A stretch of DNA of 64,000 nt from a virus: IMG/VR virus record IMGVR_UViG_3300035670_000087, one strand, 5' to 3'. Every line of letters starts with the position of its first letter. Positions within the stretch are counted from its first letter, which is position 1. The position numbers were made by a program, and so were the translations under genes. Under the pieces are notes generated by a model. The model had not been told where the DNA came from. It saw nothing but the letters and a program-made list of their open reading frames with translations, and did no database searches. Positions 1-15,282 of the stretch are shown here, piece by piece.

Positions 1-480
1 TAGTGGTGATCCTGTTAAAGTTCCATAAGTGTCAAAAGGGTATGTATTGTATATTTTATAATAGGCATATGTTGATAGTCCTCCAATAATCTCAGCAGAG
101 GGGCATACAACTGTTATAATGACTATATCCCCTGCATTCCCAGTTACAGATATTCTGTTATATGATCTTCTATCATCTGAAAAAGCTGACAACGCATCCC
201 CAAAACTAGTTCCGGAACAAGTTCCATTTTGGGTATGATTATAGCTAAGAAACTCAGACATAGCATGTTGAGCATTTCTATCAGGCTTTGACGTAGAGTT
301 TTGATTTATACCTGCATATCCATATAGTAATTCAAATTTACTATCAAAATTTCCTCTAGACAATCTAGAGAGGCTATAGTTTGTAGCTTTCCCTGACTGC
401 GTAGTTTCATAAGATATTTGAGTATTAGCAGAAAAAAAGCTAGAACTTATTGATATTTGTCCGCTACTAGGTAATGCCAT
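1..480 (-). CDS. Partial (runs off left edge) tail-fibre-associated protein, not in the supplied ORF track
   Basis: Manual translation from ATG at 480 is open to position 1: MALPSSGQISISSSFFSANT...QHAMSEFLSYNH...; the MALPSSG / MSEF-x-xY pattern is typical of small proteins downstream of phage fibre genes. Confidence 0.65.
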   Translation of the reverse strand, partial: MALPSSGQISISSSFFSANTQISYETTQSGKATNYSLSRLSRGNFDSKFELLYGYAGINQNSTSKPDRNAQHAMSEFLSYNHTQNGTCSGTSFGDALSAFSDDRRSYNRISVTGNAGDIVIITVVCPSAEIIGGLSTYAYYKIYNTYPFDTYGTLTGSPL

Positions 481-489
481 CTTATATGA

Positions 490-834
490 TTATAACCAAG
501 GAGATGGTTGTATTAATACAGTTGGATGTATTTTAGATTCTATTCTATTTTCTAAAGATTGTTGTATAGAATTAACTTCATCTATTCCCATAGCATTCTC
601 TACCCATGAATATACAATTTCTCTTGTTAATTCATTAAAAGGTATAAAGGTTGATCCGCTTTCATAAGTAACGTAAGTAACTCCAGTTTCAAAATCAGAG
701 TAGTAGTCATTAGTTTCTAGAGATCCTGTTGATGCATAACATTGCCAATGTACTTTAAAAACTACATCAACTTGTCCTTCAACAGTTGGATAAGATTCTA
801 AAGGATTAAATTGCCATTCGTAAGTGTAAGACAT
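490..834 (-). CDS. Small tail-fibre-associated hypothetical protein
   Basis: 114 aa, tightly packed after the S74 fibre; YEWQFNPLE...DVVFKVHW pattern recalls fibre-assembly-type proteins. Confidence 0.6.
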   Translation of the reverse strand: MSYTYEWQFNPLESYPTVEGQVDVVFKVHWQCYASTGSLETNDYYSDFETGVTYVTYESGSTFIPFNELTREIVYSWVENAMGIDEVNSIQQSLENRIESKIHPTVLIQPSPWL

Positions 835-835
835 T

Positions 836-1645
836 TTATTTATTTTTTATAAGTTCATGTAATTCTTTTATAGCTTCTATCAAAACAGGTACTAACCTTT
901 CATATTTTACAGTTAAGTAATCTTCTCCAGATTTAGAAGATCCATCATGGTCCATATCAAAAGGAGCTTTTTCTACTGCTTCCGGAAACACTTTCTGTAT
1001 TTCTTGAGCTAATACTCCTATTTTTTGTCTTGGATCTTCGGTAGCCCTTAGCTGCAAAGCTAACTCATTTGGTTTATAATAATACCCTCCTATCTTATTT
1101 ATTTTTTCTAATGCAGATTCTATAGGTATTATGTCTTTTTTTAATCTTTGATCAGAATAGTAAGCTATTACGTCACCTCCAAAATATCCTGTACCTAATC
1201 CTTGTATGTTTCCAGTAGCATAAATAGCCCCTACTATATGTGCTGAGTACTGGGGGTTATTTGTCTGAACCCCTAACCTATAGCCTACAAATACGGATCC
1301 TGAGGCTTCTAGTCCTCCTCTTATATAAGCGCCGCTAGATGTTATATTTACAGTAGATCCTAAAGCAGAATATGCTCCTAAATTTACTGTATAATCAGCA
1401 AATGCCTCCATTACGGGTACGCCTGCTATAGTATTTACAGAAAATATAGAATCAGATAAATCATCAGATACTTCAAATAATCTTCCATTATTACCCTCTA
1501 TAGAAAACAGTTCCGTTCTTCCTAAAGAACCGGATCCATATAGGAGTAAGGACCCTGAAGGGGCTTGGGTTAAGGATGAACTAAAGTTTAAAGAACTTGT
1601 AAATCCTATAACACTTGCTGCTGGTATTATTCTTATATCTGCCAT
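836..1645 (-). CDS. Short tail fibre/spike with C-terminal intramolecular chaperone (peptidase S74)
   Basis: SDQRLKKDIIPIESALEKI...GVLAQEIQKVFPEAV...YLTVKYERLVPVLIEAIKEL is the S74 autocleaving chaperone signature. Confidence 0.9.
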   Translation of the reverse strand: MADIRIIPAASVIGFTSSLNFSSSLTQAPSGSLLLYGSGSLGRTELFSIEGNNGRLFEVSDDLSDSIFSVNTIAGVPVMEAFADYTVNLGAYSALGSTVNITSSGAYIRGGLEASGSVFVGYRLGVQTNNPQYSAHIVGAIYATGNIQGLGTGYFGGDVIAYYSDQRLKKDIIPIESALEKINKIGGYYYKPNELALQLRATEDPRQKIGVLAQEIQKVFPEAVEKAPFDMDHDGSSKSGEDYLTVKYERLVPVLIEAIKELHELIKNK

Positions 1646-1648
1646 TTA

Positions 1649-1987
1649 TTATAATAGTGGTATTGGAGAAGCCCACTCTTCTGTTTGTAAGAGTTCTAAG
1701 ATATCTTTGTACTTATACTCCGGGTATTCTGGAGAATATATATCTGGTCTGCCATATATTCCAGCTTCTATAATATAGCTTCCTGTTTCTTTAGTTTCTG
1801 CATTAATAAATTGTTCTGTATAACTTGCTGTAACTTCTACTATATCATATTTTATAAAAGTTTTAGTTTTATCTATATTAAATCTTAAAGAATCCTGTGA
1901 TTTTTCTATCGTTTGAGAAAAATTTATAGACCCTGTAATACTTGTGGGAATTACTATCCATCTCCTATTTTCTAATAAATTCTCCAT
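1649..1987 (-). CDS. Hypothetical protein of the fibre module
   Basis: 112 aa ORF in operon packing, TATTTATA motif 5 nt upstream of ATG. Confidence 0.7.
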   Translation of the reverse strand: MENLLENRRWIVIPTSITGSINFSQTIEKSQDSLRFNIDKTKTFIKYDIVEVTASYTEQFINAETKETGSYIIEAGIYGRPDIYSPEYPEYKYKDILELLQTEEWASPIPLL

Positions 1988-1992
1988 TTATA

Positions 1993-2000
1993 TATAAATA
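1993..2000 (-). promoter_or_regulatory. TATTTATA putative late-promoter motif
   Basis: 5 nt upstream of ATG 1987. Confidence 0.6.
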
Positions 2001-3215
2001 TTAAGCTAAATTAAATCGTCTTTTATAGTTTGCATAGTTGTCTAGTATTTCAATATTAGATAGGTTTCTGTTGTATATTTTAGCCACGGCTACATATCCA
2101 CTAAATGGGTACCAATTAGTAGTCTGACCATCTCCTATATTAATACTGTTGCCTAAATTAGTTGGAGATCCTGAAAAAGTGTTAGACCCTCTAGATACCC
2201 CATTTATATAAATGGTGTTGGTAGTATTTACACCATCATAATATCTAGTACATACTACATGATTCCACACATTTAGAGATATAGTACCAGCTGATGTTGT
2301 TACTGTTCTTTGTACAGATGCTATATAATCAGAAAATATAATGCTATTTCCTTGATATACTCCCATATATGGTAAGAAACTTCCCATAAACATATTAAAA
2401 GTGTTTACACTTCCTAAGCATTTTATAACTACTTCAAATGTTGCATTTGCTCCTGGATACGTTATATCTGTTGTTATATTATCATCAGTTCCATCAAAAA
2501 GTAAAGATCCGCTAGCATCAAAAGATACTGAGGTTAAATCTATACCTATATTTTTAGATAGGTTATATAAAGATTGAGTTGAAGACCTAGTTGCTGCTAC
2601 TGGTAAAAACTGTCTAGGTCTCAGTACTTGAGATCCTTGACTTATCATAACTCCTGCTAATTGGACTTTGTTATAGGTGGCATACTCATAATGAAATAAA
2701 TAAGGCCTTATATAAGTAGCACTAGCATTAGTTGTAAAAGTTCCCCACGCATGTTTCCAACCTCCTCCTAAATCTTCTTGTCTGGTTGAGTCTAGCAATC
2801 CAAACTCCGATATAAGTCCTGAGGCTCCATATTGGTATTGGTACATATAGTTAGGACTTGAATATCCTGTTTCTGTTCTATATATTATCTGATACACGTA
2901 CTCCGTACTAGCATTTACAGAAATCTGATTAAAATAGAATAGATTTGGACAACACTGGCCGGATCCTCCAACATAATCGTTATATATATTACAATATGTT
3001 ACATTTCTAACTCCTCCCAATCCTTGTATATATACATCTTCTGTGCCGTAGTTAGTTTTGAAATAGAGGGTATCATTTGTACCTTGAAGATTGGTAATCA
3101 AGGGTACTAAATTAGTAGTAGGCTTACCTTTAAAACAATTATAAGGGTCTCCGGTATCATATGAAAATATCATACCATTAGTCACATTTTTAGAAAATCC
3201 TTGATTAGCTGCCAT
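2001..3215 (-). CDS. LamG/concanavalin-A-like lectin-domain virion protein with a central CBM-like domain
   Basis: FDGTDD, WNHVVCT, IYINGV, FSGYVAVAKIYNRNLSNIEILDNY are LamG-like beta-sandwich motifs. Confidence 0.85.
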   Translation of the reverse strand: MAANQGFSKNVTNGMIFSYDTGDPYNCFKGKPTTNLVPLITNLQGTNDTLYFKTNYGTEDVYIQGLGGVRNVTYCNIYNDYVGGSGQCCPNLFYFNQISVNASTEYVYQIIYRTETGYSSPNYMYQYQYGASGLISEFGLLDSTRQEDLGGGWKHAWGTFTTNASATYIRPYLFHYEYATYNKVQLAGVMISQGSQVLRPRQFLPVAATRSSTQSLYNLSKNIGIDLTSVSFDASGSLLFDGTDDNITTDITYPGANATFEVVIKCLGSVNTFNMFMGSFLPYMGVYQGNSIIFSDYIASVQRTVTTSAGTISLNVWNHVVCTRYYDGVNTTNTIYINGVSRGSNTFSGSPTNLGNSINIGDGQTTNWYPFSGYVAVAKIYNRNLSNIEILDNYANYKRRFNLA

Positions 3216-3216
3216 A

Positions 3217-5376
3217 TTATACTATACAAGTTCCGTTATTCGTTATTATTACATTAGAAATAGGCTGCACAGATTGTGCGCATACAAATTCTGTAGACAG
3301 TCCATTTACTGTTATTGAAGTAGAGGCTCCTGAACAATCCACATATGACACTACTCTAGGAGATCCTGCTGAATTATACAATTCATAAGAATCACACGGC
3401 ACAGGTGTTGATGTAGGAGCTTGGGTAGATGTAGGAGTTGGGGTAGGTGTAAATGTTGGTGGTAAAGGAGTTGGGGTTGAGGTAGGAATAGGAGTTGGGG
3501 TAGGTGTAAATGTTGGTGGTAAAGGAGTTGGGGTTGAGGTAGGAATAGGAGTTGGGGTTGAAGTGGCTGGTAATGGTGTAGGTGTGGATGTTGGAATAGG
3601 AGTTGGAGTAGCTGTAGCTGGTAAAGGAGTTGGAGTAGCTGTAGCTGGTAAAGGAGTTGGGGTTGAAGTAGGGACAGGAGTTGGGGTTGCTGTAGCTGGT
3701 AATGGTGTTGGAGTTGAAGTAGGAATAGGTGTTGGGGTTGGTGTAGCTGGTAAAGGAGTTGGGGTTGCTGTAGGTGTAGATGTTGGGGTAGGAGTAGGAG
3801 TAGATGTTGGAGTAGGAGTAGATGTTGGGGTAGGAGTAGATGTTGGAACAGGAGTTGGAGTAGGTAAGTACACAAATCTAGTTCTATAAGATTCGTAGTT
3901 GCTTTTTATTTCTGCTCCTGACAATACTCTATTATATACTCTGGCAATAGATATGTAGCAAGGAGTGTTATAACCTCCTCCGTGATAAGCTCCTAAATAA
4001 AATTTACCAGTTCCGGTAGTAGTTGTGTTTAAAGCTCCGGCAGATCCTATATAATTACCATCTATGTATAAAAAAGCTCCTACAGAGCTATTATTAACTA
4101 CCACTATGTGGTGATACTTTCCGTCTGGATGATAAGAATTAGAAAATGGGTTAGCTGTTCCATTTCCTATATTCCAATATATAGCATTAGAGTAGAAATA
4201 TAGATTAGGTCCGGAAGCATAATTATCCCCATTAACGGAAATAGGTATGACGTTATTATAGCTAGATGCTTGTATCATCATTTCCCAAGTACTATCTTTT
4301 CCTAATATTATATCTGCATTTAAATAATCGTCTGTACCATCAAAATAGAAATTACTACTAGCATCATAAGATAAGTTTCCTATGTTTATACTATTTTTTT
4401 TAGTGCTAATATCTAACAATCCTTGTGTAGATGATCTAGTAGATAGCGTAAATGCAGTAGCATGTCCTTTATTTATTTCTACTTGTAAATCAGATATATC
4501 AAGATCGTAAGGAACTAAAGCCCCTTGTGGAAACCAGTATTGATAAAAACTATATGTAGCAGATGCAATCCATGTATATGTAAATTTTTGCCAAACCCCC
4601 ATAAATCCTAAAATAGTAGACACACTAGGGGCAGAAGCGCCTCCAAAATAAGTTGCCCATACCACACTTTTTCCTTCTGCACTTTTAGTAACAGGTTTTA
4701 TCCAAAAAGACACAGTAACAATATTCCCTATAGTAACTGGGGTATAGACATTATAAGCCATGCCGTCCGCTACATTGTCCCCTCTGTACACATGTAATCT
4801 TATGCATGTTGTATTCTTAACATACCCCGGAGAGACTACTTCTTTTATTAAGCCTGAATTTGGTAAATGTGGATACCCCCACCACATGGTAGGGAAATCA
4901 ACAGAATTTATAGATATTTTAATATCCTTTGCATATGCATCGTGTACTTTGTAAAATCCTGTGTCTGGATTTACAAATCCTTGAGATCCATCTTGAGATG
5001 AATTATACTCATGTAAACTGAATTGAGTATCAGATATTTTTTTTACCACATAATTAACCCCTGCTGTTACTCCGCCTCCTGTTGTTTGTGGTGTAACAAC
5101 ATCAAAACTTCTTAAAGGATGTGCCGCAGTTAAAGTCACTATATTGCTAGTAACATCACTAATAGTCCCTATACTAAAATAACTACCGTTGTTATATTGA
5201 TTTACATTGTAAGTCCCCCATAAATTTCCAAAAGTAAACCTACCATTAAGTTCTGGGTTTGGTAATATATTAGTTGTAGGTTCTCCTACATAAGAATTTA
5301 TCTTATCTCCCGTATCATATGCAAGAGCTACGGAAGAAGTATCAAAAACTATTCTAGGTCCTGTTGTTGTAGGCAT
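3217..5376 (-). CDS. LamG-domain virion protein with C-terminal Pro/Thr mucin-like linker and small Cys domain
   Basis: FDGTDDY...YHHIVVV...LYIDG...[17 protein letters not shown], then about 145 aa of PT/PTST/ATAT repeats and a Cys-containing tail (CDSYEL...DCSG...VCAQ...GTCIV). Confidence 0.85.
3434..3547. repeat. Perfect 57-bp tandem duplication inside the Pro/Thr linker
   Basis: ggagttggggtaggtgtaaatgttggtggtaaaggagttggggttgaggtaggaata at 3434-3490 and 3491-3547. Confidence 0.9.
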
Positions 5377-5378
5377 GA

Positions 5379-6050
5379 TTATAATAAAAATCTACGTCTT
5401 ATTGCATTAAAATTTTGTAATACTTGTCCTTTACTTAAGGCTATATCATATGCTACTACGCAAGCCATATCCCCTTCCCAATACCCTGCGTAGCCATTTC
5501 CTATTGTTATGCTAGTAGTTGTATACGGAAGGGCTCCATATGGGTTTGTCATAGTAGCAGTCTGTACTCCATTTTTATACCAAACAACAGTGTTTATATC
5601 TCTTGTTGCGCACATAACATTCCAAACTCCTGTAGAAGTTGTTCCACTATTTAGAGCTGTGTAAGGAGTACTATTTCCTCCATTATCTCCATAAAAATAG
5701 TTTATATTAACTCCTTGTTCATGAGTCCATGTTCCATACCCTCCATATGCTTGGTTCCAAGGGTTTTTTCTTCCAGAAGTGTAAGTATGTCTCATAACTA
5801 TCATAACAGTCTGTCCTTCTGAAAAATTTAAACTTCCACTATTGCTAGTTATTGTTCCATAATTACTGGTTCCATTAAAAGTAAAATAATTACCTGAATG
5901 CCCAGGTGCGTTTGGTAGAGAACAGTGATTACCAAATCCACTAATATCATACCAAACACTTCCTGATCCAGAATAGGATCTCTTATCCGCTGCATCTAAA
6001 ATAAGAGATATTCCTTCGAGAACTATTCTAGGTCCGTAATTTTGTGCCAT
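5379..6050 (-). CDS. Single-domain LamG/concanavalin-A-like protein
   Basis: [54 protein letters not shown]. Confidence 0.85.
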
Positions 6051-6052
6051 AA

Positions 6053-9000
6053 CTAATATTCTGTTATCAATTTGTCAACATCTTTACGTTCAGCAAATAT
6101 AGTATAATAACAATCTATATAATCTTCCGACCCTACTATTACTTTTTCATAATCACTAGATTTTACATATAAATTTTGATGCTTTCCTATAGGAGTTAAA
6201 TTTACTGTTATAGTATTTTCATCTACAAGATTAACCCAATGATCAGGTAATATTATAGTATTGTCTCCTTTTAGTCTTCCTCTTACATACACAGAGTGTT
6301 CTGGTCCTTCTAATACACCGTACTGCAATTTCATGCCAGGTTTAGTCGGATGGTCTATCACAAACGATTTTATCGTTGCTGTTAAGACCCCTGTAATATC
6401 TACAGTACCTACATTTATTGACATTACTTGTGTAACAGAGGTAGGGGATGAAGTAGTGGTTCCTGCTCCTATAGATAATCCTCCAATATTTCCACCATTG
6501 AACTGGATATACCCCATCCAGGTAGAATCTACTTTTTGTTGAATTCTATGTCCTGATGTGTACCAATCAGAGCCGTTTCCTATTCTAATGTTTGTTATCT
6601 CTAAATTATCAACATTAGTAGTAGTGGTAGTAAAGTTTTGAAGTAACACTCTATCTCCTGAGGTGCTTCCTAAAGATCCTCCCGATATTGTTAATTTAGA
6701 AGCAGGAGATGTAGTACCTACTCCCAACAAACCAGCACTGGATACGTATACAGTACCAGAAGCTCCATTTGCAGAGTTTATATACAAAGGTCTTGCAGTA
6801 TAAGCTCCTATATAAAAAGTACTATCTGTTTCTAATACTAAGTCTCCAGTACCATATAAGCTACCATTTCCAGTTGTTCTGGTTATGTTTAATATGGTAC
6901 CATCAAAAGTTAGATTACTTTCCGCAACTGCTGCATTTGTAGTTCCATCTGAAGTTAGTACTCTATTGTCTGCTGGATTAGATACAGTATTGAACCCTGT
7001 TCCGCTAGTACCAGATGTTCCACTCTCTCCCATTGGACCAAATCCAACATTAGTAAATGCTAAATTCGTATTATATATTGATGAATCAAGGTGTAAAGGA
7101 GAGCCAATAGATCTAGCTACAGTTCTAAGTAAAGTCCCATCTAAATAATACCTAACATTGTACCCATCATAAGTAACATATGCTACAGAATCTACTGTAT
7201 ACGATCCAAAAGAACCTATTGATCCTCCACTCTCATAAATTGAAACAGTTGCGTTATTAAAATAAAAAGCATAATCAATTGATATATAAGAAGCATTTGT
7301 TGTTGGATCTGAGTTTAATCCAATCATCGCATACCCGGTAGTTGACGATATTTTTGATGTTACAAATACACCTCTTACATAGCCTTGTTGAGAATAAACT
7401 TGTGAATCCCATGCATTATTTGTTCCACCAGTTTTTGTAAATACATCAGGACTAGGTCCTTGTGTTACATTTGTCATTACTGGTGTCCAGGTTAAAGATC
7501 CGTTTTGTCCACTAGATCCTGAAGAACCGGATGATCCTGTACTACCAGATGTACCCGATGTTCCTGTTGAACCAGATGAACCAGATGAACCAGATGAACC
7601 GCTAGAACCGCTAGTTCCTGTGGAACCAGAAGAACCAGAAGAACCTCTTGATCCAGAAGATCCGCTAGAACCAGTAGATCCACTTGAACCACTAGTTCCT
7701 GTGGAACCAGAAGAACCAGAAGAACCTCTTGATCCAGAAGATCCACTTGAACCACTAGTTCCTGTGGAACCAGAAGAACCTCTAGAACCAGAAGATCCGG
7801 AAGTACCGCTACTTCCACTAGTACCTGTTGAGCCGCTAGAACCACTAGTTCCTGTGCTACCAGATGATCCGCTTGTTCCTGTAGAACCAGAGCTACCTGA
7901 TGTACCGGTAGAGCCAGAAGAACCGCTAGATCCTCTTGTTCCTGAAGATCCAGAACTGCCAGAAGTTCCGGTAGACCCACTAGACCCGGAAGTACCTGTT
8001 GACCCTGATGATCCTGAAGTGCCAGTTGAACCACTAGAACCAGAAGTACCTGTTGAGCCGCTAGATCCTGATGTTCCTGTAGAACCACTAGTTCCTGTAG
8101 ATCCGGATGTGCCAGTAGAGCCAGAAGATCCGCTTGAACCAGTAGATCCACTTGAACCACTCGTTCCTGTAGATCCAGATGAGCCACTAGATCCTGATGT
8201 TCCGGTTGATCCTGATGTTCCTGTGGAACCGCTGCTACCAGAGCTACCAGTTGATCCAGAGGATCCTGATGTTCCAGATGAACCTGATGTACCTGATGAT
8301 CCAGCTGTGCCGTCAGCTCCACTAGTTCTATAATAAAATTGGCCTGTTGTAGGATCTACTACTACAAATCTAGTTAATCCTGCATTTAGTGCAAGATCTT
8401 TTATTGCTACAGACCCCGATATTTTAACACTTCCTGTAAATTCTTGACTATCTGTTAAAGAATCTCCAAATATGTTACTACCGCTGCTGTATATTACTGA
8501 AGATGTAACATATTGTACTACTAAAGTATTTGCGAATATACTGCCTGGTGTTACTATATTACCACTAACGTTTAATGTGCCTGTTACATTAAAACTGTTG
8601 TTTGCATATATTAAATTTATAGAAGCTGTAGCAGCATTTACAGTATTATCTGCAAGAATTACTCTGCCTATACCAGGATTATGTATTGTATTAAATCCTG
8701 TTCCGCTACTTCCAGAAGAACCGCTAGTTCCTGATGTACCACTAGACCCACTAGAACCAGTAGAACCAGATGAACCAGAAGTACCAGTTGATCCTGAAGA
8801 TCCAGAAGTACCTGTAGAACCAGATGAACCAGAAGTACCAGTTGATCCTGAAGAACCTGAAGTGCCACTAGTACCGGAAGAGCCTCTAGTACCTGATGTA
8901 CCGCTAGACCCACTAGAACCTGAGGTTCCAGAAGATCCTCCAGTTCCTGCAGTTCCAGAAGATCCTGAAGTTCCTGTAGATCCAGAACTGCCAGAAGTTC

Positions 9001-12000
9001 CAGTTGAGCCAGAGGAACCGCTTGATCCGCTAGAACCTGATGTTCCACTAGTTCCCGTAGAACCTGATGTTCCAGTAGATCCTGAACTGCCAGAAGACCC
9101 GCTAGTTCCTGCGCTACCTGATGTTCCTGTTGAGCCACTTGTACCTGTACTACCAGAGGTTCCTGTGGAACCACTACTACCAGATGAACCACTAGAGCCG
9201 CTACTTCCTGATGTTCCTGTGGAACCACTACTACCAGAAGATCCTCTTGTTCCTGAAGAACCTGAGCTACCAGAGGTTCCTGTTGAACCAGACGATCCTG
9301 AAGTCCCTGTAGATCCAGAACTACCTGATGTTCCTGAAGAACCTGAGCTACCAGAGGTTCCTGTTGAACCACTACTACCAGATGAGCCACTAGAGCCGCT
9401 ACTTCCTGATGTTCCTGTACTACCAGAGGTGCCTGTGCTACCGCTACTACCGGAGGAGCCAGTTGAACCACTAGTTCCTGATGTTCCTGTAGAACCACTA
9501 CTACCTGATGTTCCTGAAGAACCTGAGCTACCAGAGGTTCCTGTGGAACCACTAGTTCCTGATGTTCCTGTGGAACCACTACTACCAGAAGATCCTCTTG
9601 TTCCTGAAGAACCTGAGCTACCGCTTGTTCCAGAACTACCCGATGTTCCTGTGCTACCAGAGGTTCCTGTTGAACCACTAGTTCCTGTGCTACCAGATGA
9701 TCCACTAGAGCCGCTTGTCCCTGAACTTCCCGATGACCCAGAAGTACCTGTAGAACCGCTACTTCCACTAGTTCCAGTAGATCCAGAAGAACCTGAAGAA
9801 CCTGAAGAACCTGAAGAACCTGAAGAACCTGAAGAACCTGAAGAACCTGAAGAACCTGAAGAACCTGATGTTCCACTTGACCCTGATGTTCCTGTTGATC
9901 CAGAACTTCCAGATGTTCCATCTGCTCCACTAGTCCTATAAAAAACATTTCCATCCTGGTCTACTACTAAAAATAAATTAGCACTAGAGCTTATTGGAAT
10001 ATTTCTTAAACTTAAAGAACCAGTTATTTTTACACTTCCTGTAAATAAATGATTGTCGGTAACACTATCTCCAAATATATTACTACCGCTACTGTAAATT
10101 ACAGAGGATGTTATATATTGTACTACTAAAGTATTAGCAAAAATATTACCTGGGGTTGAAATGTTCCCACTAACATTAAGAGCCCCTGTAACATTGAAAC
10201 TGTTGTTAGTATATAGTAAATTTATAGACGCAGTTGCTGCGTTTGTAGTTCCATCTGATAAAATAACTCTACCTTGTGCTGGGCTGTTTATTGTATTAAA
10301 TCCTGTACCAGAACTTCCTGAGGAGCCACTTGTGCCAGTAGACCCGCCAGTACCTGAAGAACCTGATGAGCCAGATGTACCTGAGCTCCCTGAAGTGCCT
10401 GTACTGCCGCTGCTACCAGAACTTCCTCTAGATCCAGAAGACCCACTTGAGCCGCTTGATCCTGTTGATCCAGAACTTCCAGATGTTCCAGTAGATCCTG
10501 ATGAACCAGAGGTTCCTGTACTACCAGAAGAACCACTTGTACCTGATGAACCAGAGGTTCCAGATGATCCAGTTGATCCACTACTACCTGATGAACCAGA
10601 TGTACCTGAGCTTCCTCTAGTACCAGAAGAGCCAGAGGAACCGCTAGAGCCAGAAGATCCCCCTGTGCCACTTGTTCCACTACTTCCAGAGGACCCAGAA
10701 GTACCCGTTGAACCTGAAGAACCAGAACTACCGCTAGATCCTGCTGTGCCAGATATACCAGATGAACCAGAGGTTCCTGTAGAACCAGATGTGCCAGAAG
10801 ATCCTGCTGTGCCACTTGTGCCAGAAGAACCGGAAGTTCCTGAAGTACCAGATGAACCACTTGTACCTGTACTACCAGATGAACCAGATGTTCCTGTAGA
10901 TCCTGAAGTTCCACTACTTCCACTAGTACCAGTCGATCCTGAAGTACCTGAGGTACCAGAAGAGCCTGTAGAACCTGAGGAGCCACTTGACCCTGTTGAT
11001 CCGCTTGTACCTGATGTACCGCTAGTACCAGTTGAACCGGAAGATCCAGAGGATCCTGTAGTTCCAGAAGTTCCCGATGTGCCGGAAGTACCACTACTTC
11101 CTCTAGTTCCTGAAGTTCCTGATGACCCAGAGCTGCCAGAAGTACCTGTAGATCCGGAAGAACCAGATGTACCTGTACTACCGCTTGATCCGCTTGTTCC
11201 TGAACTACCGTTTTGTCCTGAAGTTCCTGATGACCCACTAGAACCAGAAGTACCAGATGATCCGGAACTACCGTCTCCCCCACTAGCACCTGCCAAATTT
11301 ATACTCCAAGAAGAATAAGTTCCGCTACCTACTGTTGTACTAGGTGTAATAAATGTCAACAATCCTGTTATAGGATCATAAGATGATACTTGAGCTTCTT
11401 GATAATTATTTAAATCATAAGCTATTACTACAGTTTGTGTAATAGAATAAGCTAAGCCTGTTCCAACATAAAGGCTTCCACTGTTTCCTAAAGTAAATGA
11501 TCCAGTAGAAGATGTTAGATATCTATCTCCAGATAAACCTGCAGTACCTGAAGATCCAGAAGAGCCTGATGTTCCGGTTGATCCGCTAGAGCCGGATGAA
11601 CCTGAAGAGCCTGATGTTCCGGTACTACCGCTAGTACCAGTGGACCCTGATGATCCAGATGTGCCTGTAGATCCGCTACTGCCAGAAGAGCCTGATGTAC
11701 CAGATGACCCACTAGAACCAGAAGTACCAGTTGATCCTGATGTACCTGTTGTTCCTGAGCTGCCACCAGTACCCGAAGTACCTGTACTACCAGAAGATCC
11801 TGAACTTCCAGAAGAGCCAGATGAACCTGCTGTACCAGATGTTCCAGAACTTCCTCTAGATCCAGAAGATCCACTAGAACCTGAGGTACCTGTTGAACCG
11901 CTTGAACCACTAGTCCCACTAGAACCTGACGATCCCGTAGTTCCAGAAGTACCGGAAGATCCAGAAGTACCTGTAGTTCCTGACGATCCAGTAGACCCTG

Positions 12001-13717
12001 ATGACCCGCTAGACCCAGACGTACCTGCTGTACCTGTTGATCCACTACTTCCTGCTGAACCTGAAGAGCCTGATGTTCCTGTTGTTCCTGACGATCCAGT
12101 AGATCCTGAACTTCCTGATGTACCTGTAGACCCCGAACTTCCTGTTGATCCGCTACTTCCACTAGTACCAGACGTGCCTGATGTGCCAGTAGATCCTGAA
12201 GATCCTGATGTGCCACTTGAACCAGATGTTCCTGATGTGCCTGTAGAACCGCTAGATCCTGTAGATCCAGAAGATCCTGTTGAACCAGATGTACCGGATG
12301 ATCCTGAGGTACCAGTTGATCCTGAAGAACCAGAGGTACCAGTAGAGCCTGATGAGCCTGTAGATCCACTACTTCCACTAGAACCAGAAGAGCCTGATGT
12401 TCCGGTTGATCCGCTTGTACCTGATGTACCGCCAGTACCAGATGTACCTGTGGATCCACTAGACCCTGAATTTCCACTAGAACCGGATGTGCCTGAGGAG
12501 CCAGAACTACCTGAAGTACCTGATGAGCCGGATGTACCAGAAGATCCGGATGTGCCTGAACTGCCGGAAGACCCGGAAGTACCGCTTGTACCTGTAGAAC
12601 CTGAACTGCCAGAAGTTCCTGATGAGCCTGTAGAACCTGAGCTACCGCTAGATCCTGAAGTTCCAGTAGAACCGCTTGATCCAGAGCTTCCAGACGTGCC
12701 AGTAGATCCGCTAGATCCGGTGGTGCCTGATAAGCCTGAGGAACCGCTAGAGCCAGAACTTCCGGAGGTGCCGCTAGAACCTGAGGTACCTGAAGTACCA
12801 CTAGAGCCGTCAGCTCCACTAGTTCTATAATAAAATTGTCCAGTTACAGGGTCTACTACTACAAAAGTTGTTGAACCAGAATTTAAAGATAAATCTTTTA
12901 CGCTTAAAGACCCTGTTATAAGTACACTTCCAGTAAATTGATGTGTATCAGTTAAACTATCCCCAAATATATTACTACCGCTGCTGTATACTACTGAAGA
13001 TGTTACATACTCTACTACTAAAGTAGTTGCATATATGTTTCCTGGGGTTACTATATCTCCGCTAACATTTAAAGATCCAGTAACAGTTAAAGTATTATTG
13101 TTATATACTAAATTAGCAGAAGCTGTTGCTGCGTTTACAGAACCATCGGATAAAATTATTCTTCCTGGTCCGGGATCATGTATAGTATCAAATCCTGTTC
13201 CAGAAGAACCAGCTGTACCACTTGTACCTGTTGTTCCAGATGTGCCTGAAGTACCGCTTGTACCTGTTGTTCCAGATGTGCCTGAAGTACCGCTTGTACC
13301 TGTTGTTCCAGAAGAACCAGCTGTACCGCTTGTACCTGTTGTTCCACTTGTTCCACTAGACCCGTTAGTGCCAGAAGATCCTACGCCTCCAGATAAAGTA
13401 TATTGAAACTGCCCAGATACAGGATCTACTACTACAAAATAAGATGCACTAGAAGTTACCAGTAAGTGTTTATTATATATGGACCCAGAAATGTCTAAGG
13501 ACCCAGTAAAAGTTTGAATACCTATAAAAATATTGGATCCAGTAGTTGCTAATGATGCAGATTTTGAAGAAAATATAGGGTCGTTTTCTGGAAAAGAACC
13601 TGAGAAAGAACCTGTAAAAGAGCCTGAGAAAGATCCCGCAGTTACGGTATTCGATACTGTTAGATTTTTAAAATTTGCATCAGAACCATCTCTGGCTATC
13701 TGGATCCATGTTGCCAT
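6053..13717 (-). CDS. Giant (2554 aa) tail fibre-like protein: about 1500 aa of Gly-X-Y (X,Y mostly Ser/Thr) repeats interrupted by globular domains
   Basis: Near-strict Gly every third residue in five blocks; three copies of a ~125-aa domain; C-terminal IKSFVIDHP...LQYGVLEGPEHSVYVRG motif recalled from fibre C-termini. Confidence 0.85.
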   Translation of the reverse strand: MATWIQIARDGSDANFKNLTVSNTVTAGSFSGSFTGSFSGSFPENDPIFSSKSASLATTGSNIFIGIQTFTGSLDISGSIYNKHLLVTSSASYFVVVDPVSGQFQYTLSGGVGSSGTNGSSGTSGTTGTSGTAGSSGTTGTSGTSGTSGTTGTSGTSGTSGTTGTSGTAGSSGTGFDTIHDPGPGRIILSDGSVNAATASANLVYNNNTLTVTGSLNVSGDIVTPGNIYATTLVVEYVTSSVVYSSGSNIFGDSLTDTHQFTGSVLITGSLSVKDLSLNSGSTTFVVVDPVTGQFYYRTSGADGSSGTSGTSGSSGTSGSSGSSGSSGLSGTTGSSGSTGTSGSSGSSGSTGTSGSSGSSGSTGSSGTSGSSGSTGTSGTSGSSGSSGTSGSSGTSGSSGTSGSSGSSGTSGSSGNSGSSGSTGTSGTGGTSGTSGSTGTSGSSGSSGSSGSTGSSGSTGTSGSSGSTGTSGSSGTSGSTGSSGSTGSSGSTGTSGTSGSSGTSGSSGSTGTSGTSGTSGSSGSTGSSGSTGTSGSSGSTGSSGTTGTSGSSGSAGSSGSTGTAGTSGSSGSSGSTGSSGTTGTSGSSGTSGTTGSSGSSGTSGSSGSTGTSGSSGSSGSRGSSGTSGTAGSSGSSGSSGSSGSTGTSGTGGSSGTTGTSGSTGTSGSSGSSGTSGSSGSSGSTGTSGSSGSTGTSGSTGTSGSSGSSGSSGSTGTSGSSGSSGTAGLSGDRYLTSSTGSFTLGNSGSLYVGTGLAYSITQTVVIAYDLNNYQEAQVSSYDPITGLLTFITPSTTVGSGTYSSWSINLAGASGGDGSSGSSGTSGSSGSSGTSGQNGSSGTSGSSGSTGTSGSSGSTGTSGSSGSSGTSGTRGSSGTSGTSGTSGTTGSSGSSGSTGTSGTSGTSGSTGSSGSSGSTGSSGTSGTSGSTGTSGSSGTSGSTGTSGSSGSTGTSGSSGTSGTSGSSGTSGTAGSSGTSGSTGTSGSSGISGTAGSSGSSGSSGSTGTSGSSGSSGTSGTGGSSGSSGSSGSSGTRGSSGTSGSSGSSGSTGSSGTSGSSGTSGSSGSTGTSGSSGSTGTSGSSGSTGSSGSSGSSGSRGSSGSSGSTGTSGSSGTSGSSGSSGTGGSTGTSGSSGSSGTGFNTINSPAQGRVILSDGTTNAATASINLLYTNNSFNVTGALNVSGNISTPGNIFANTLVVQYITSSVIYSSGSNIFGDSVTDNHLFTGSVKITGSLSLRNIPISSSANLFLVVDQDGNVFYRTSGADGTSGSSGSTGTSGSSGTSGSSGSSGSSGSSGSSGSSGSSGSSGSSGSTGTSGSSGSTGTSGSSGSSGTSGSSGSSGSTGTSGSTGTSGSTGTSGSSGTSGSSGSSGTRGSSGSSGSTGTSGTSGSTGTSGSSGSSGTSGSSGSTGTSGTSGSTGSSGSSGSTGTSGSTGTSGSSGSSGSSGSSGSTGTSGSSGSSGTSGSSGSTGTSGSSGSTGTSGSSGSSGTRGSSGSSGSTGTSGSSGSSGSSGSSGSTGTSGSTGTSGSTGTSGSAGTSGSSGSSGSTGTSGSTGTSGTSGSSGSSGSSGSTGTSGSSGSTGTSGSSGTAGTGGSSGTSGSSGSSGTSGTRGSSGTSGTSGSSGSTGTSGSSGSTGTSGSSGSTGTSGSSGSTGSSGSSGTSGTSGSSGSSGTGFNTIHNPGIGRVILADNTVNAATASINLIYANNSFNVTGTLNVSGNIVTPGSIFANTLVVQYVTSSVIYSSGSNIFGDSLTDSQEFTGSVKISGSVAIKDLALNAGLTRFVVVDPTTGQFYYRTSGADGTAGSSGTSGSSGTSGSSGSTGSSGSSGSTGTSGSTGTSGSSGSSGSTGTSGSSGSTGSSGSSGSTGTSGSTGTSGSTGTSGSSGSTGTSGSSGSTGTSGSSGSTGTSGSSGSTGTSGSSGSSGTRGSSGSSGSTGTSGSSGSTGTSGSSGSTGTSGSSGSTGTSGSSGTSGSSGSRGSSGSTGTSGSSGSSGSRGSSGSSGSTGTSGSSGSTGSSGSSGSRGSSGSSGSTGTSGSSGSSGSSGSSGSTGTSGTSGSTGSSGSSGSSGQNGSLTWTPVMTNVTQGPSPDVFTKTGGTNNAWDSQVYSQQGYVRGVFVTSKISSTTGYAMIGLNSDPTTNASYISIDYAFYFNNATVSIYESGGSIGSFGSYTVDSVAYVTYDGYNVRYYLDGTLLRTVARSIGSPLHLDSSIYNTNLAFTNVGFGPMGESGTSGTSGTGFNTVSNPADNRVLTSDGTTNAAVAESNLTFDGTILNITRTTGNGSLYGTGDLVLETDSTFYIGAYTARPLYINSANGASGTVYVSSAGLLGVGTTSPASKLTISGGSLGSTSGDRVLLQNFTTTTTNVDNLEITNIRIGNGSDWYTSGHRIQQKVDSTWMGYIQFNGGNIGGLSIGAGTTTSSPTSVTQVMSINVGTVDITGVLTATIKSFVIDHPTKPGMKLQYGVLEGPEHSVYVRGRLKGDNTIILPDHWVNLVDENTITVNLTPIGKHQNLYVKSSDYEKVIVGSEDYIDCYYTIFAERKDVDKLITEY
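9786..9866. repeat. Perfect 9-bp microsatellite (gaagaacct)x9 encoding (GSS)n
   Basis: Counted directly: nine identical units from 9786 to 9866. Confidence 0.95.
13215..13345. repeat. 36-bp near-perfect tandem repeats (about 3.6 units) in the first Gly-X-Y block
   Basis: Units begin gtacc(a/g)cttgtacctgttgttccaga at 13215, 13251, 13287 and 13323. Confidence 0.85.
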
Positions 13718-13752: not shown

Positions 13753-13760
13753 TATAAATA
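13753..13760 (-). promoter_or_regulatory. TATTTATA putative late-promoter motif
   Basis: Intergenic, upstream of the giant fibre gene. Confidence 0.6.
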
Positions 13761-13769
13761 TCAAAAAGC

Positions 13770-14021
13770 TTAAAAAGACTCATCTCCAAGATCTATTACT
13801 GCATTGCTTCCTGTATCTGCAAATGTTCCTAGTCCTTGTATAAATAAAGACCCGCTATAACTATCTATAGAGTGTACTATTTCTTGTGAGCCACTTACAA
13901 CTAATGCTGGTATAGAAGAGGTTTGAACAAAAACACCTTGACCAATAACTGTCAATGACCCTGTTAACACAAAGTCTCCTGATAATTCTTTACTTATTTG
14001 TTTAGCTCTTATTAATGCCAT
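13770..14021 (-). CDS. Small hypothetical virion protein (start revised to MALIRAK)
   Basis: ATG at 14021 directly follows the gp15-like stop; TGS-rich composition like the fibre N-terminus. Confidence 0.65.
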   Translation of the reverse strand: MALIRAKQISKELSGDFVLTGSLTVIGQGVFVQTSSIPALVVSGSQEIVHSIDSYSGSLFIQGLGTFADTGSNAVIDLGDESF

Positions 14022-14022
14022 T

Positions 14023-15282
14023 TTATTCAAATTTTCCTACAGATATAATATCATCTTGACTATCAAAAGAATACCCTAAAGTACCTTCATTTATTGTCAA
14101 CACTGTATTTACACCTGATTCAACAAAAGACGTTATATGTGTTGCATCAACATACACTCCATTTACAAAAAATTTAAAATCACTAACAGAAGTTGCAGGC
14201 AATCCTGATCCTGCTGGGGGCTCTTTGAACGATGTGTTCAAAAAAGTAGCCGTATTACTTGTTGTAGAAGCTGCGTCAGCCTTTTTAGTTTCTGATGTGT
14301 TTAAATACAATATAACATCAGTGTTAGTGTTAGTCGTTGTGTTTGTTATATTTGTCACATTCACTCCTTCTGGTATATATGATGTCAATGCTTGTTTAGG
14401 CTTAACTGGGGCTCTAAATGCTACTTGTTCTACGTCTTGGCTAGATGCTTCCATTGTGAAGAATACTTGCGCTTTAGACCTGTATTTAAGTGCATTTGCA
14501 GCCAAATGTTTACCTATATTACTAGGAGTTAAGTACCCATTCATTGATAAAGTAAATGTACTTAGAAACCTTCTATCGGTCCCCTCATTAATTTCATTAG
14601 TAATAGGAAAATTATCTATCCTAGCTTTAAATAAAAACTTTCCAGGTTCTCCCCAATAAGAGTCTGCTCTAAAACTTATATCCTCAATAATTTTATTTAT
14701 ATCTTCATAAAAAGAAGTATAGGCTGTACACGTATAAGTAAGGGTGTAATAGTCTGGTACAACTACATTATAGAATTCTTTAACCGGAACCCTGTTAGTT
14801 AGAACAGCAAAATTATCATACTGATTTTTAGTAGTGTATCTCTTTTCATAAGTTTGAAAAATATTTACAGTATTGCCGTCTAACTTGTGACTGATGGATC
14901 TGTTTCTTTCCAGGTTGTCCCTTCTTATGGTTATTATAGGTAGCATTATTCTACCGTCCTTATCTCTGTAGATACCGTCTTTTTGTGCTGTTTTCCATCT
15001 TTCGGCATCTGCAAATATTACAGGAATATTTTGCTTTGTACCCTCATTTATAACATAAGGCATTATAACCTCTTGAAAATAATACATTATCGCACTATCT
15101 ATATCTTCTAACCCTACTGATATGTCTTTGAGGTCTTCTCCTCTCATTGACACATCTTCCCCTCTCTTATACTCATGTATAGGAGGTTTTTGTACGTTAC
15201 TATAGTTAGGCTCTATTTTATCATTTAAAATTTCTGCCTCTGTTTTAGGTCTATTTTTTAGAACTCTTTTTTGTAAAGGCAT
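14023..15282 (-). CDS. T4 gp15-like tail terminator/sheath stabiliser with C-terminal extension
   Basis: IPVIFADAERW, RIMLPIITIRR, VPDYYTLTY, INKIIE pattern; position after gp13/gp14-like genes. Confidence 0.65.
   Translation of the reverse strand: MPLQKRVLKNRPKTEAEILNDKIEPNYSNVQKPPIHEYKRGEDVSMRGEDLKDISVGLEDIDSAIMYYFQEVIMPYVINEGTKQNIPVIFADAERWKTAQKDGIYRDKDGRIMLPIITIRRDNLERNRSISHKLDGNTVNIFQTYEKRYTTKNQYDNFAVLTNRVPVKEFYNVVVPDYYTLTYTCTAYTSFYEDINKIIEDISFRADSYWGEPGKFLFKARIDNFPITNEINEGTDRRFLSTFTLSMNGYLTPSNIGKHLAANALKYRSKAQVFFTMEASSQDVEQVAFRAPVKPKQALTSYIPEGVNVTNITNTTTNTNTDVILYLNTSETKKADAASTTSNTATFLNTSFKEPPAGSGLPATSVSDFKFFVNGVYVDATHITSFVESGVNTVLTINEGTLGYSFDSQDDIISVGKFE

Follow-up and report, generated by a model that had tools for sequence, protein, structure and literature searches.

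Collagen-like stalks are featured in the side-tail fibres EPclA and EPclB encoded by prophages of E. coli O157:H7, where a Gly-X-Y stalk lies between the globular trimer domains of a homotrimeric protein (PMC3368898). The BclA-type exosporium glycoproteins of Bacillus and Clostridioides combine a Thr-rich, O-glycosylated Gly-X-Y stalk with a globular trimeric end, and their sugars are thought to aid hydration and stability (PMC8968730). The known substrates of TibC and Aah, namely TibA and AIDA-I, are likewise rod-shaped, repetitive and Ser-rich; TibC is a ring-shaped dodecamer that heptosylates the serines of its substrate, apparently processively, and belongs to the bacterial autotransporter heptosyltransferases (BAHT, TIGR04414; PDB 4RAP; PMC4358343). 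The present analysis concerns the 64,000-nt viral DNA of IMG/VR record IMGVR_UViG_3300035670_000087, referred to here as the window, and the open reading frame (ORF) at positions 6053-13717 on its - strand. This ORF is a real fibre gene that has been mis-annotated publicly, and it represents a widespread variant of the phage collagen-like fibres in which nearly all X and Y positions are taken by Ser and Thr.

The fibre gene is a single open frame of 2,554 codons. A strict count, requiring Gly at each third residue without a break, resolved five blocks of 22, 144, 110, 137 and 92 triplets, which together make up 505 triplets (1,515 aa) with zero Gly substitutions or phase shifts within any block. 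Block lengths of roughly 65, 430, 330, 410 and 275 aa, proposed in an earlier sequence-only reading of this DNA, are borne out by this count, as is the statement that X and Y are nearly all Ser or Thr with Pro and charge almost absent. Ser or Thr occupies 957 of the 1,010 X/Y positions (95%), and the remaining residues are Ala (15), Arg (12), Gly (10), Asp (5), Asn (4), Leu (3), Gln (2), Ile (1) and Val (1). None of the 1,010 positions holds Pro, Lys, Glu or an aromatic residue, and only 17 are charged. The blocks therefore lack the stabilising imino acids and charge pairs that are usual in collagens, although these are not strictly defining. The triplets GSS (214), GTS (146) and GST (90) account for 89% of all triplets in the fibre. 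The uninterrupted Gly-X-Y pattern is that of the collagen repeat proteins (PF01391), whose Pfam profile scores the fibre at 622 bits against a cut-off of 27.2. When block 4 was searched against the sequences of the PDB, the matches were limited to animal collagens, a GAPGxQ-type fibril (8zxl) and, weakly, BclA (1wck), all of which are compositional resemblances and not relatives. The Gly codons are mixed (GGA 202, GGT 211, GGC 73, GGG 29), Ser is drawn from both TCN and AGY, and identity between tandem repeats is only 60-90%. Because Gly, Ser and Thr codons are fully mixed and the repeats so diverged, the blocks are not a recent slippage artefact. Amid these otherwise diverged repeats, a perfect (GAAGAACCT) x 9.2 tandem repeat encoding (Gly-Ser-Ser)9 is found at window positions 9786-9868, and this is likely a hot spot for slippage and length change.

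Each block terminates at a conserved module and not at decayed repeats. Three of these modules, the knots M1, M3 and M4 (124-125 aa), are mutually paralogous, while M2 (77 aa) is a separate module type; the second half of an M1/M3/M4-type module is also present within the N-terminal 109 residues. The knot core contains 19 positions that are invariant or nearly so across 38 fibre segments, and 103 giant proteins of 1,400-4,400 aa each contain several copies of it. A Gly-X-Y run is present in only three of these 103 proteins, and their knots alternate with Ser/Ala-rich coiled-coil-like repeats. As the knots of the giant fibres separate coiled-coil-like rods, they are generic joints of trimeric rods, and collagen-type rods here occupy the place of the coiled coils of the relatives. 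Copies of M2 with 52-60% identity lie between Ser/Thr-collagen blocks in 16 of the 120 viral loci listed and also occur in a 735-kb uncultured phage. Regular spacing of Ser/Thr-collagen blocks by M2-like modules (about 79 aa each) is seen in further viral loci such as L035, e.g. C93-[79]-C85-[79]-C90-[79]-C38, and represents a second, widespread kind of collagen joint without a known fold. Among the cultured phages, the knot core was found only in Microcystis phage Mel-JY01, a cyanophage with no Ser/Thr collagen, and M2 in none, its one further phage being the uncultured 735-kb one. The knots, N-terminus, M2 and tip did not match any Pfam family even at E 10, nor any PDB sequence.

Trimer structure prediction, a check proposed in the sequence-only reading, was run on three copies of aa 1095-1308 (15 triplets, M3, 15 triplets) with a custom alignment. 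The score was 0.87, compared with 0.11 for the best of three controls, and the three runs agreed in at least 82% of contacts with a partner predicted local distance difference test (pLDDT) value of at least 70. In calibration, 20 of 30 proteins with a solved structure as a pair of one chain attained the score mark, as did 1 of 23 solved as a single chain; these counts are only roughly valid for the knot, given the custom alignment and the three copies. The confident contacts fall within the knot, at aa ~1139-1267, and M3 is thus predicted to trimerise as a register-setting domain flanking the rods. The collagen flanks (segment residues 1-44 and 174-214) gave almost no contacts of low expected error; they are uncertain and weigh neither for nor against a helix. 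Downstream of block 5, the top Foldseek matches of the AlphaFold2 (AF2) model of aa 2076-2235 were SPRY/B30.2 domains, CBM66 and L-type lectins, all of the ConA-like fold, and this domain is repeated up to 24 times in giant relatives. Over its last 118 aa the fibre is 65% identical to the 'putative tail fiber-like protein' gp052 of immuto, and T4-like cyanophages encode proteins with about 50% identity to this stretch. The gp052 protein has both the start motif and the C-terminal tip in common with the fibre, but no collagen. An AF2 monomer of aa 2236-2554 remained below pLDDT 50, and no fold was assignable to the tip from it. Together with its position between a gp15-like terminator gene and an S74 fibre gene, and with matches to PHROG tail-fibre families down to E 5e-207 (largely repeat-driven), the tip homology identifies the product as a phage fibre.

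The distribution of residues between X and Y bears on whether the blocks are helical. The rival that survives best holds that they are intrinsically disordered, possibly mucin-like glycosylated spacers, so that three flexible chains without a triple helix would run between trimeric knots. A composition of 95% Ser/Thr with no Pro and almost no charge is common in linkers, and the low intrinsic helix propensity of Ser/Thr triplets is established. A linker, however, needs no Gly at the exact third residue over 505 triplets after codon divergence, and here the codons have diverged while positions 1 and 2 of the Gly codons never change. Nor does it need positional rules. All 12 Arg of the fibre blocks are in Y and none in X (Fisher p = 4.6e-4), and X and Y are also unlike in their ratio of Ser to Thr (chi-square p = 4e-7). 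A DNA pattern of 20 consecutive Gly-(Ser/Thr-type)-(Ser/Thr-type) codons is matched by at least 120 IMG/VR contigs, at least 109 of which contain ORFs whose X/Y positions are 80% or more Ser/Thr and nearly devoid of Pro. Across the 20,850 triplets of these 109 viral loci, Arg occurs 11 times in X and 90 times in Y, Glu 106 and 19 times, and Leu 156 and 21 times; X is 49% Ser and 45% Thr, and Y is 85% Ser. Collagens place acidic residues in X and basic residues in Y (PMC3368898), and the fibre and its class exhibit this same preference. A linker also has no reason to bar Pro while accepting Ala. Single-base changes in the codons present give access to both equally (15.6% each), yet Ala is seen 15 times and Pro never, so Pro is selected against; its share across the class is 0.2%. 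Finally, the blocks lie in register between knots that are predicted to trimerise. These statistics favour a collagen-type helix over a random linker. We regard the triple helix as probable, not as proven, and disorder as unlikely while still the most serious of the alternatives.

The sequence-only reading had also offered a compact polyglycine-II bundle as an alternative fold, in which the blocks would fold back on themselves in the manner of the snow-flea antifreeze protein or the T-even gp38 adhesins. Gly-x-x periodicity and small residues recall such bundles, which do occur in phage adhesins. In the known bundles, turns or loops connect the polyproline II (PPII) helices, and a layered bundle requires a Gly content above the one third that yields collagen, the excess rising with the number of neighbouring helices (10.1101/2023.11.25.568672). 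The blocks contain only 34% Gly, their runs extend to 432 residues without punctuation by turns, the 53 residues other than Ser and Thr are irregularly spaced, and parallel trimer knots are predicted on the block flanks. The bundle was consequently rejected as very improbable. That the frame is a gene-calling artefact, the real genes being the + strand frames at 7620-8333, 8472-9941, 10161-11318 and 11640-12830, is scarcely credible: reading (GGN-WSN-WSN)n in reverse complement does give an open frame of Pro/Glu/Asp-rich repeats, and the JGI annotation of the contig calls three + strand frames with only the last 474 aa of the fibre, but one frame of 2,554 codons links all repeats to nine non-repeat modules with homologues, every gene in the window lies on the - strand, the + strand frames end at the knots, and the orthologue in contig G004 is organised alike. 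The + strand shadow frames face the collagen blocks, and the protein-library form of the fibre (P0002) is likewise reduced to the last 474 aa. Ser/Thr-collagen genes are probably mis-called systematically.

The sequence-only reading had proposed the fibre as a possible main acceptor for the glycosyltransferases (GTs) of the phage, and this part holds in altered form. The window encodes a GT60-like operon at 41-47 kb, of which a homologue was identified in G004 (83% identity) and in G008 (39%). This operon was rejected as the source of the fibre enzyme: the homologue is absent from immuto and from all three Ser/Thr-collagen contigs that are at least 90% complete, and because of the latter the operon does not accompany Ser/Thr collagen as a rule. 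Of the 120 short Ser/Thr-collagen loci listed, only 2 have homologues of the window GT operon. A better candidate is encoded just outside the window. Contig L244 is 100% identical to window positions 1-11645 and extends 9.2 kb beyond the left edge, where it contains a glycosylation island oriented in the direction of the fibre gene. The 692-aa protein of this island, encoded 5.5-7.5 kb past the edge and starting 11.5 kb after the fibre stop codon, scored 295.1 bits on TIGR04414 (cut-off 200) and covers profile positions 24-373 of 374. Alignment to 4rap_A (TibC residues 27-380) showed that the catalytic Asp D110, the sugar-binding Lys K230 and the four iron-finger Cys residues of TibC (PMC4358343) are all kept. 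In G004, an island of GT1, FkbM-methyltransferase and GT9-like genes lies between two fibre genes and encodes a 693-aa protein with 300.9 bits on the same profile. TIGR04414 matches above the cut-off were found in 8 of 10 Ser/Thr-collagen contigs, including all three that are at least 90% complete, and in 1 of 6 control phage genomes (Fisher p = 0.035). By analogy with the known substrates, a Ser-rich triple-helical rod is a plausible substrate for a TibC-type enzyme. A TibC/Aah-type Ser O-heptosyltransferase with GT1/FkbM partners would thus replace the window GTs as the candidate; the balance tips slightly towards the fibre being glycosylated, and it may be the main acceptor. In Mel-JY01 (PP395634.1; 3065-4591 and 7339-8421), a knot-bearing, Ser-rich 'structural protein' is located about 3 kb from a 1,234-aa frame with a TIGR04414 domain (320 bits). 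Such an enzyme may act on Ser-rich fibres more broadly, and Mel-JY01 could provide an entry point for experiments.

From these features we infer, with somewhat better than even confidence, a homotrimeric segmented virion fibre with collagen-type rods, trimeric knots and probable O-glycosylation that acts as a long tether. The conserved N-terminal anchor would fix the fibre to the particle, either at the neck or collar, next to which the adjacent tail-terminator gene would place it, or at the baseplate. The five Gly-(Ser/Thr)-(Ser/Thr) blocks would form triple-helical rods, which at the collagen rise of 0.29 nm per residue (PMC8968730) would span about 19, 125, 96, 119 and 80 nm, or about 440 nm in sum. 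The trimeric β-rich knots at the rod ends would nucleate the rods and hold their register, and are probably also hinges. The distal ConA/SPRY-like β-sandwich, the exchangeable tip and the three Laminin_G_3 proteins are the likely host-binding parts, and a tether of ~0.4 µm would widen the capture radius of the phage. The exposed Ser hydroxyls are probably O-glycosylated in the cytoplasm of the infected cell by the TibC/Aah-type heptosyltransferase and the GT1/FkbM-methyltransferase proteins, and these sugars would stabilise and hydrate the rods in place of the proline, hydroxyproline and charge pairs of other collagens. Judging from collagen biochemistry, a helix free of proline would also avoid slow prolyl isomerisation during folding. 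The long jointed fibre of the sequence-only reading is therefore supported in its joints, which are conserved, and in its calculated length, while its function as a tether is put forward here as a proposal. A more specific extension is doubtful but worth stating, namely that Ser/Thr-only Gly-X-Y fibres constitute a distinct, proline-free 'glyco-collagen' that folds quickly without prolyl bonds, becomes stable only after a TibC-type ring enzyme and extending and methylating enzymes have coated the rod, and provides a tether tunable in length from 50 to more than 800 triplets.

Several points weigh against this model. The intrinsic stability of a helix without Pro, hydroxyproline (Hyp) or charge pairs is expected to be low; (Gly-Pro-Thr)10 reportedly forms no helix unless glycosylated, in work attributed to Bann et al. 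(2000), and a Gly/Ser/Thr composition is also typical of flexible linkers. The samples behind the association with TIGR04414 are small and lack phylogenetic independence. No BAHT was seen in two of the Ser/Thr-collagen contigs (70% and 84% complete), and one control phage without Ser/Thr collagen, Mel-JY01, has one. The substrates known for BAHTs are β-helix autotransporters, not collagen. Gene order alone places the fibre on neither the neck nor the baseplate, and the class is known from sequences.

The Ser/Thr-collagen ORFs carry many different N- and C-terminal domains, and among the matches listed unbroken runs reach 843 triplets and a single ORF holds up to 952 in total. Ten of the listed loci have the gene order head-completion, terminator, Ser/Thr-collagen fibre, with fibres of 48 to more than 612 triplets. 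The closest relative among these matches is G004, whose terminator is 88% identical to that of the window. The N-terminus of its orthologous fibre is 77% identical, its rods comprise 10+71+70+129+73 triplets, and its tip carries an S74 chaperone. Such a conserved anchor with variable rods and exchangeable distal parts is the behaviour of a host-recognition fibre. The region G004:C1:46427-79527 (L122, L123) contains two giant Ser/Thr-collagen fibre genes (2,865 and 2,786 aa) flanking the glycosylation island, and Laminin_G_3 genes follow the second. The single fibre gene of the window combines the N-terminus of the first G004 fibre with the Laminin_G_3 followers of the second, as if the intervening region had recombined out. 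The DNA pattern was also observed in at least 120 prokaryote contigs (L124-L243), including several Burkholderia chromosomes, filamentous cyanobacteria and metagenome-assembled genomes of Bacteroidota; in three of the listed contigs a BAHT homologue is located within 8 kb. These prokaryote matches may be prophages or cellular surface proteins. A full-text literature search, of incomplete coverage and hence no proof of absence, found no paper on proline-free Ser/Thr collagen in phages.

The window belongs to an uncultured T4-like phage of Bacteroidota. Its major capsid protein is of the Gp23 type (PF07068, E 4e-75), and portal, terminase, protease and baseplate-wedge genes are present. Among cultured phages, those of the genus Immutovirus, which are Baltic Flavobacterium phages, are most closely related to it. 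No near DNA match to the window was found in 50,697 phage records. Of the 31-mers sampled from positions 5400-7400, 77% occur in two runs of a lagoon metagenome from 2025, a mere hint of a close relative elsewhere; three runs of subsurface metagenomes, possibly the source, contain them as well. The features of the locus are collected in Table 1. The gene upstream of the fibre encodes a tail terminator, as its AF2 model has T4 gp15 as its top match (4huh_B, Z 12.3, root-mean-square deviation 4.1, 156 residues aligned), and some 50 terminators of other phages rank next at Z 9-11; the pLDDT is 65-84 in the core and 45 for the whole, and the core has the terminator fold. The PF16724 profile did not match the protein at 14023-15282, and in its nearest Atlas cluster 19% of members carry that domain. 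The ~160 extra C-terminal residues, with β-strands predicted at aa 369-397, are lacking in shorter relatives and could be a docking site for a neck fibre. The small ORF at 13770-14030 resembles the fibre knots in its LTGSL..V.G motifs and may encode an adaptor or be a fibre remnant.

Table 1. Features of the fibre locus (window positions unless a contig is named; aa numbering of the fibre protein)
Feature	Position	Strand	Remarks
Fibre gene	6053..13717	-	Single open frame; Pfam Collagen 622 bits; PHROG tail-fibre families 5073, 6320, 8745
N-terminal anchor	13391..13717	-	aa 1-109; 77% identity to orthologous fibre N-terminus in G004; start motif common to immuto gp052 and L026
Collagen block 1	13193..13390	-	aa 110-175, 22 triplets, 66 aa
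Knot M1	12818..13192	-	aa 176-300; paralogue of M3 and M4; core motif invariant in 38 fibre segments
Collagen block 2	11522..12817	-	aa 301-732, 144 triplets, 432 aa
Knot M2	11291..11521	-	aa 733-809, distinct 77-aa module; 52-60% identical copies elsewhere
Collagen block 3	10301..11290	-	aa 810-1139, 110 triplets, 330 aa
Knot M3	9929..10300	-	aa 1140-1263; predicted homotrimer interface; relatives in 103 giant fibre proteins
Collagen block 4	8696..9928	-	aa 1264-1674, 137 triplets, 411 aa; holds perfect 9-bp x 9.2 repeat at 9786-9868
Knot M4	8321..8695	-	aa 1675-1799; paralogue of M1 and M3
Collagen block 5	7493..8320	-	aa 1800-2075, 92 triplets, 276 aa
ConA-like/SPRY-like β-sandwich domain	7013..7492	-	aa 2076-2235; AF2 pLDDT about 97; ConA-like fold by Foldseek
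Four-triplet mini-collagen, half-knot and C-terminal tip	6056..7012	-	aa 2236-2554
Late-promoter-like motif TATTTATA	13753..13760	-	Ends 35 nt before fibre ATG
Small ORF, fibre-like sequence	13770..14030	-	84-86 aa; between terminator and fibre genes
Tail terminator, T4 gp15-like	14023..15282	-	~160-aa C-terminal extension; AF2 core vs 4huh_B
Laminin_G_3 protein	5379..6050	-	223 aa; ATG 2 nt after fibre stop codon
Laminin_G_3 protein	3217..5376	-	719 aa; domain match
Laminin_G_3 protein	2001..3215	-	404 aa; domain match
Short fibre protein with Peptidase_S74 chaperone domain	836..1645	-	269 aa; domain match
Glycosylation island	L244:12797-19187	fibre's direction	1.2-7.5 kb beyond window position 1; 852-aa GT1+FkbM+Methyltransf_24 fusion; 277-aa unassigned protein; 309-aa FkbM methyltransferase; 692-aa GT1-like/TibC-type fusion

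For collagen biophysics, the class bears on how little a triple helix needs, as it comprises hundreds of sequences that lack imino acids and are nearly uncharged, with runs reaching 843 triplets among the matches listed. The presence of a candidate sugar-adding enzyme beside proline-free repeats makes a sugar-stabilised collagen directly testable in E. coli. For phage biology, the gene points to fibres of ~0.4 µm, several times the T4 tail fibre, with a length that varies more than tenfold between close relatives, and to virion glycosylation of another kind than that of the mycobacteriophages. Public pipelines call the opposite-strand shadow frames and keep the last 474 aa, and the class is consequently under-represented in protein databases. 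What is new here is the architecture of knots with swapped rods, the positional X/Y statistics, the place beside the tail-terminator gene and the enzyme island outside the window.

Compared with the described systems, the fibre is likewise phage-encoded and, by prediction, homotrimeric like EPclA and EPclB, and EPclA has Ser/Ala-rich coiled-coil rods, as do the non-collagen relatives of the fibre. The collagen of EPclA has 48% Pro in X, many charged pairs and a length of ~60 nm (PMC3368898), whereas the fibre described here has no Pro, 95% Ser/Thr and 505 triplets in five rods of ~440 nm, and the PfN, PfC and Pf2 domains of EPclA and EPclB gave no Pfam match in it. The O-glycosylated stalk of BclA, whose counterpart sugars are only predicted for the fibre, is mostly Gly-Pro-Thr, far shorter, part of a bacterial spore surface protein and served by other sugars and transferases. 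Relative to TibC and Aah, the phage BAHT has an extra N-terminal GT1-like half, FkbM methyltransferase neighbours and a presumed substrate that is collagen-like and not a β-helix passenger. A PPII backbone and Gly-x-x periodicity are shared with the snow-flea antifreeze protein and phage S16 gp38 (10.1101/2023.11.25.568672). The higher Gly content and the turn- or loop-joined helices of those proteins are not found in the fibre. Mycobacteriophage glycosyltransferases are reported by Freeman et al. (2023) to decorate the phages' own structural proteins, the targets being short Ser/Thr tails of capsid and tail-tube proteins. That O-glycosylation uses other enzyme families and involves no collagen, unlike the fibre presented here. 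Fibritin (wac) of T4, a segmented homotrimeric rod whose gene adjoins the neck genes, has an anchor at its N-terminus as well as a folding nucleus, and its 487-aa coiled coil measures ~50 nm. The fibre of the present phage is likewise segmented with an anchor, and its gene follows a gp15-like terminator gene, but its predicted rods are of the collagen type and about eight times longer.

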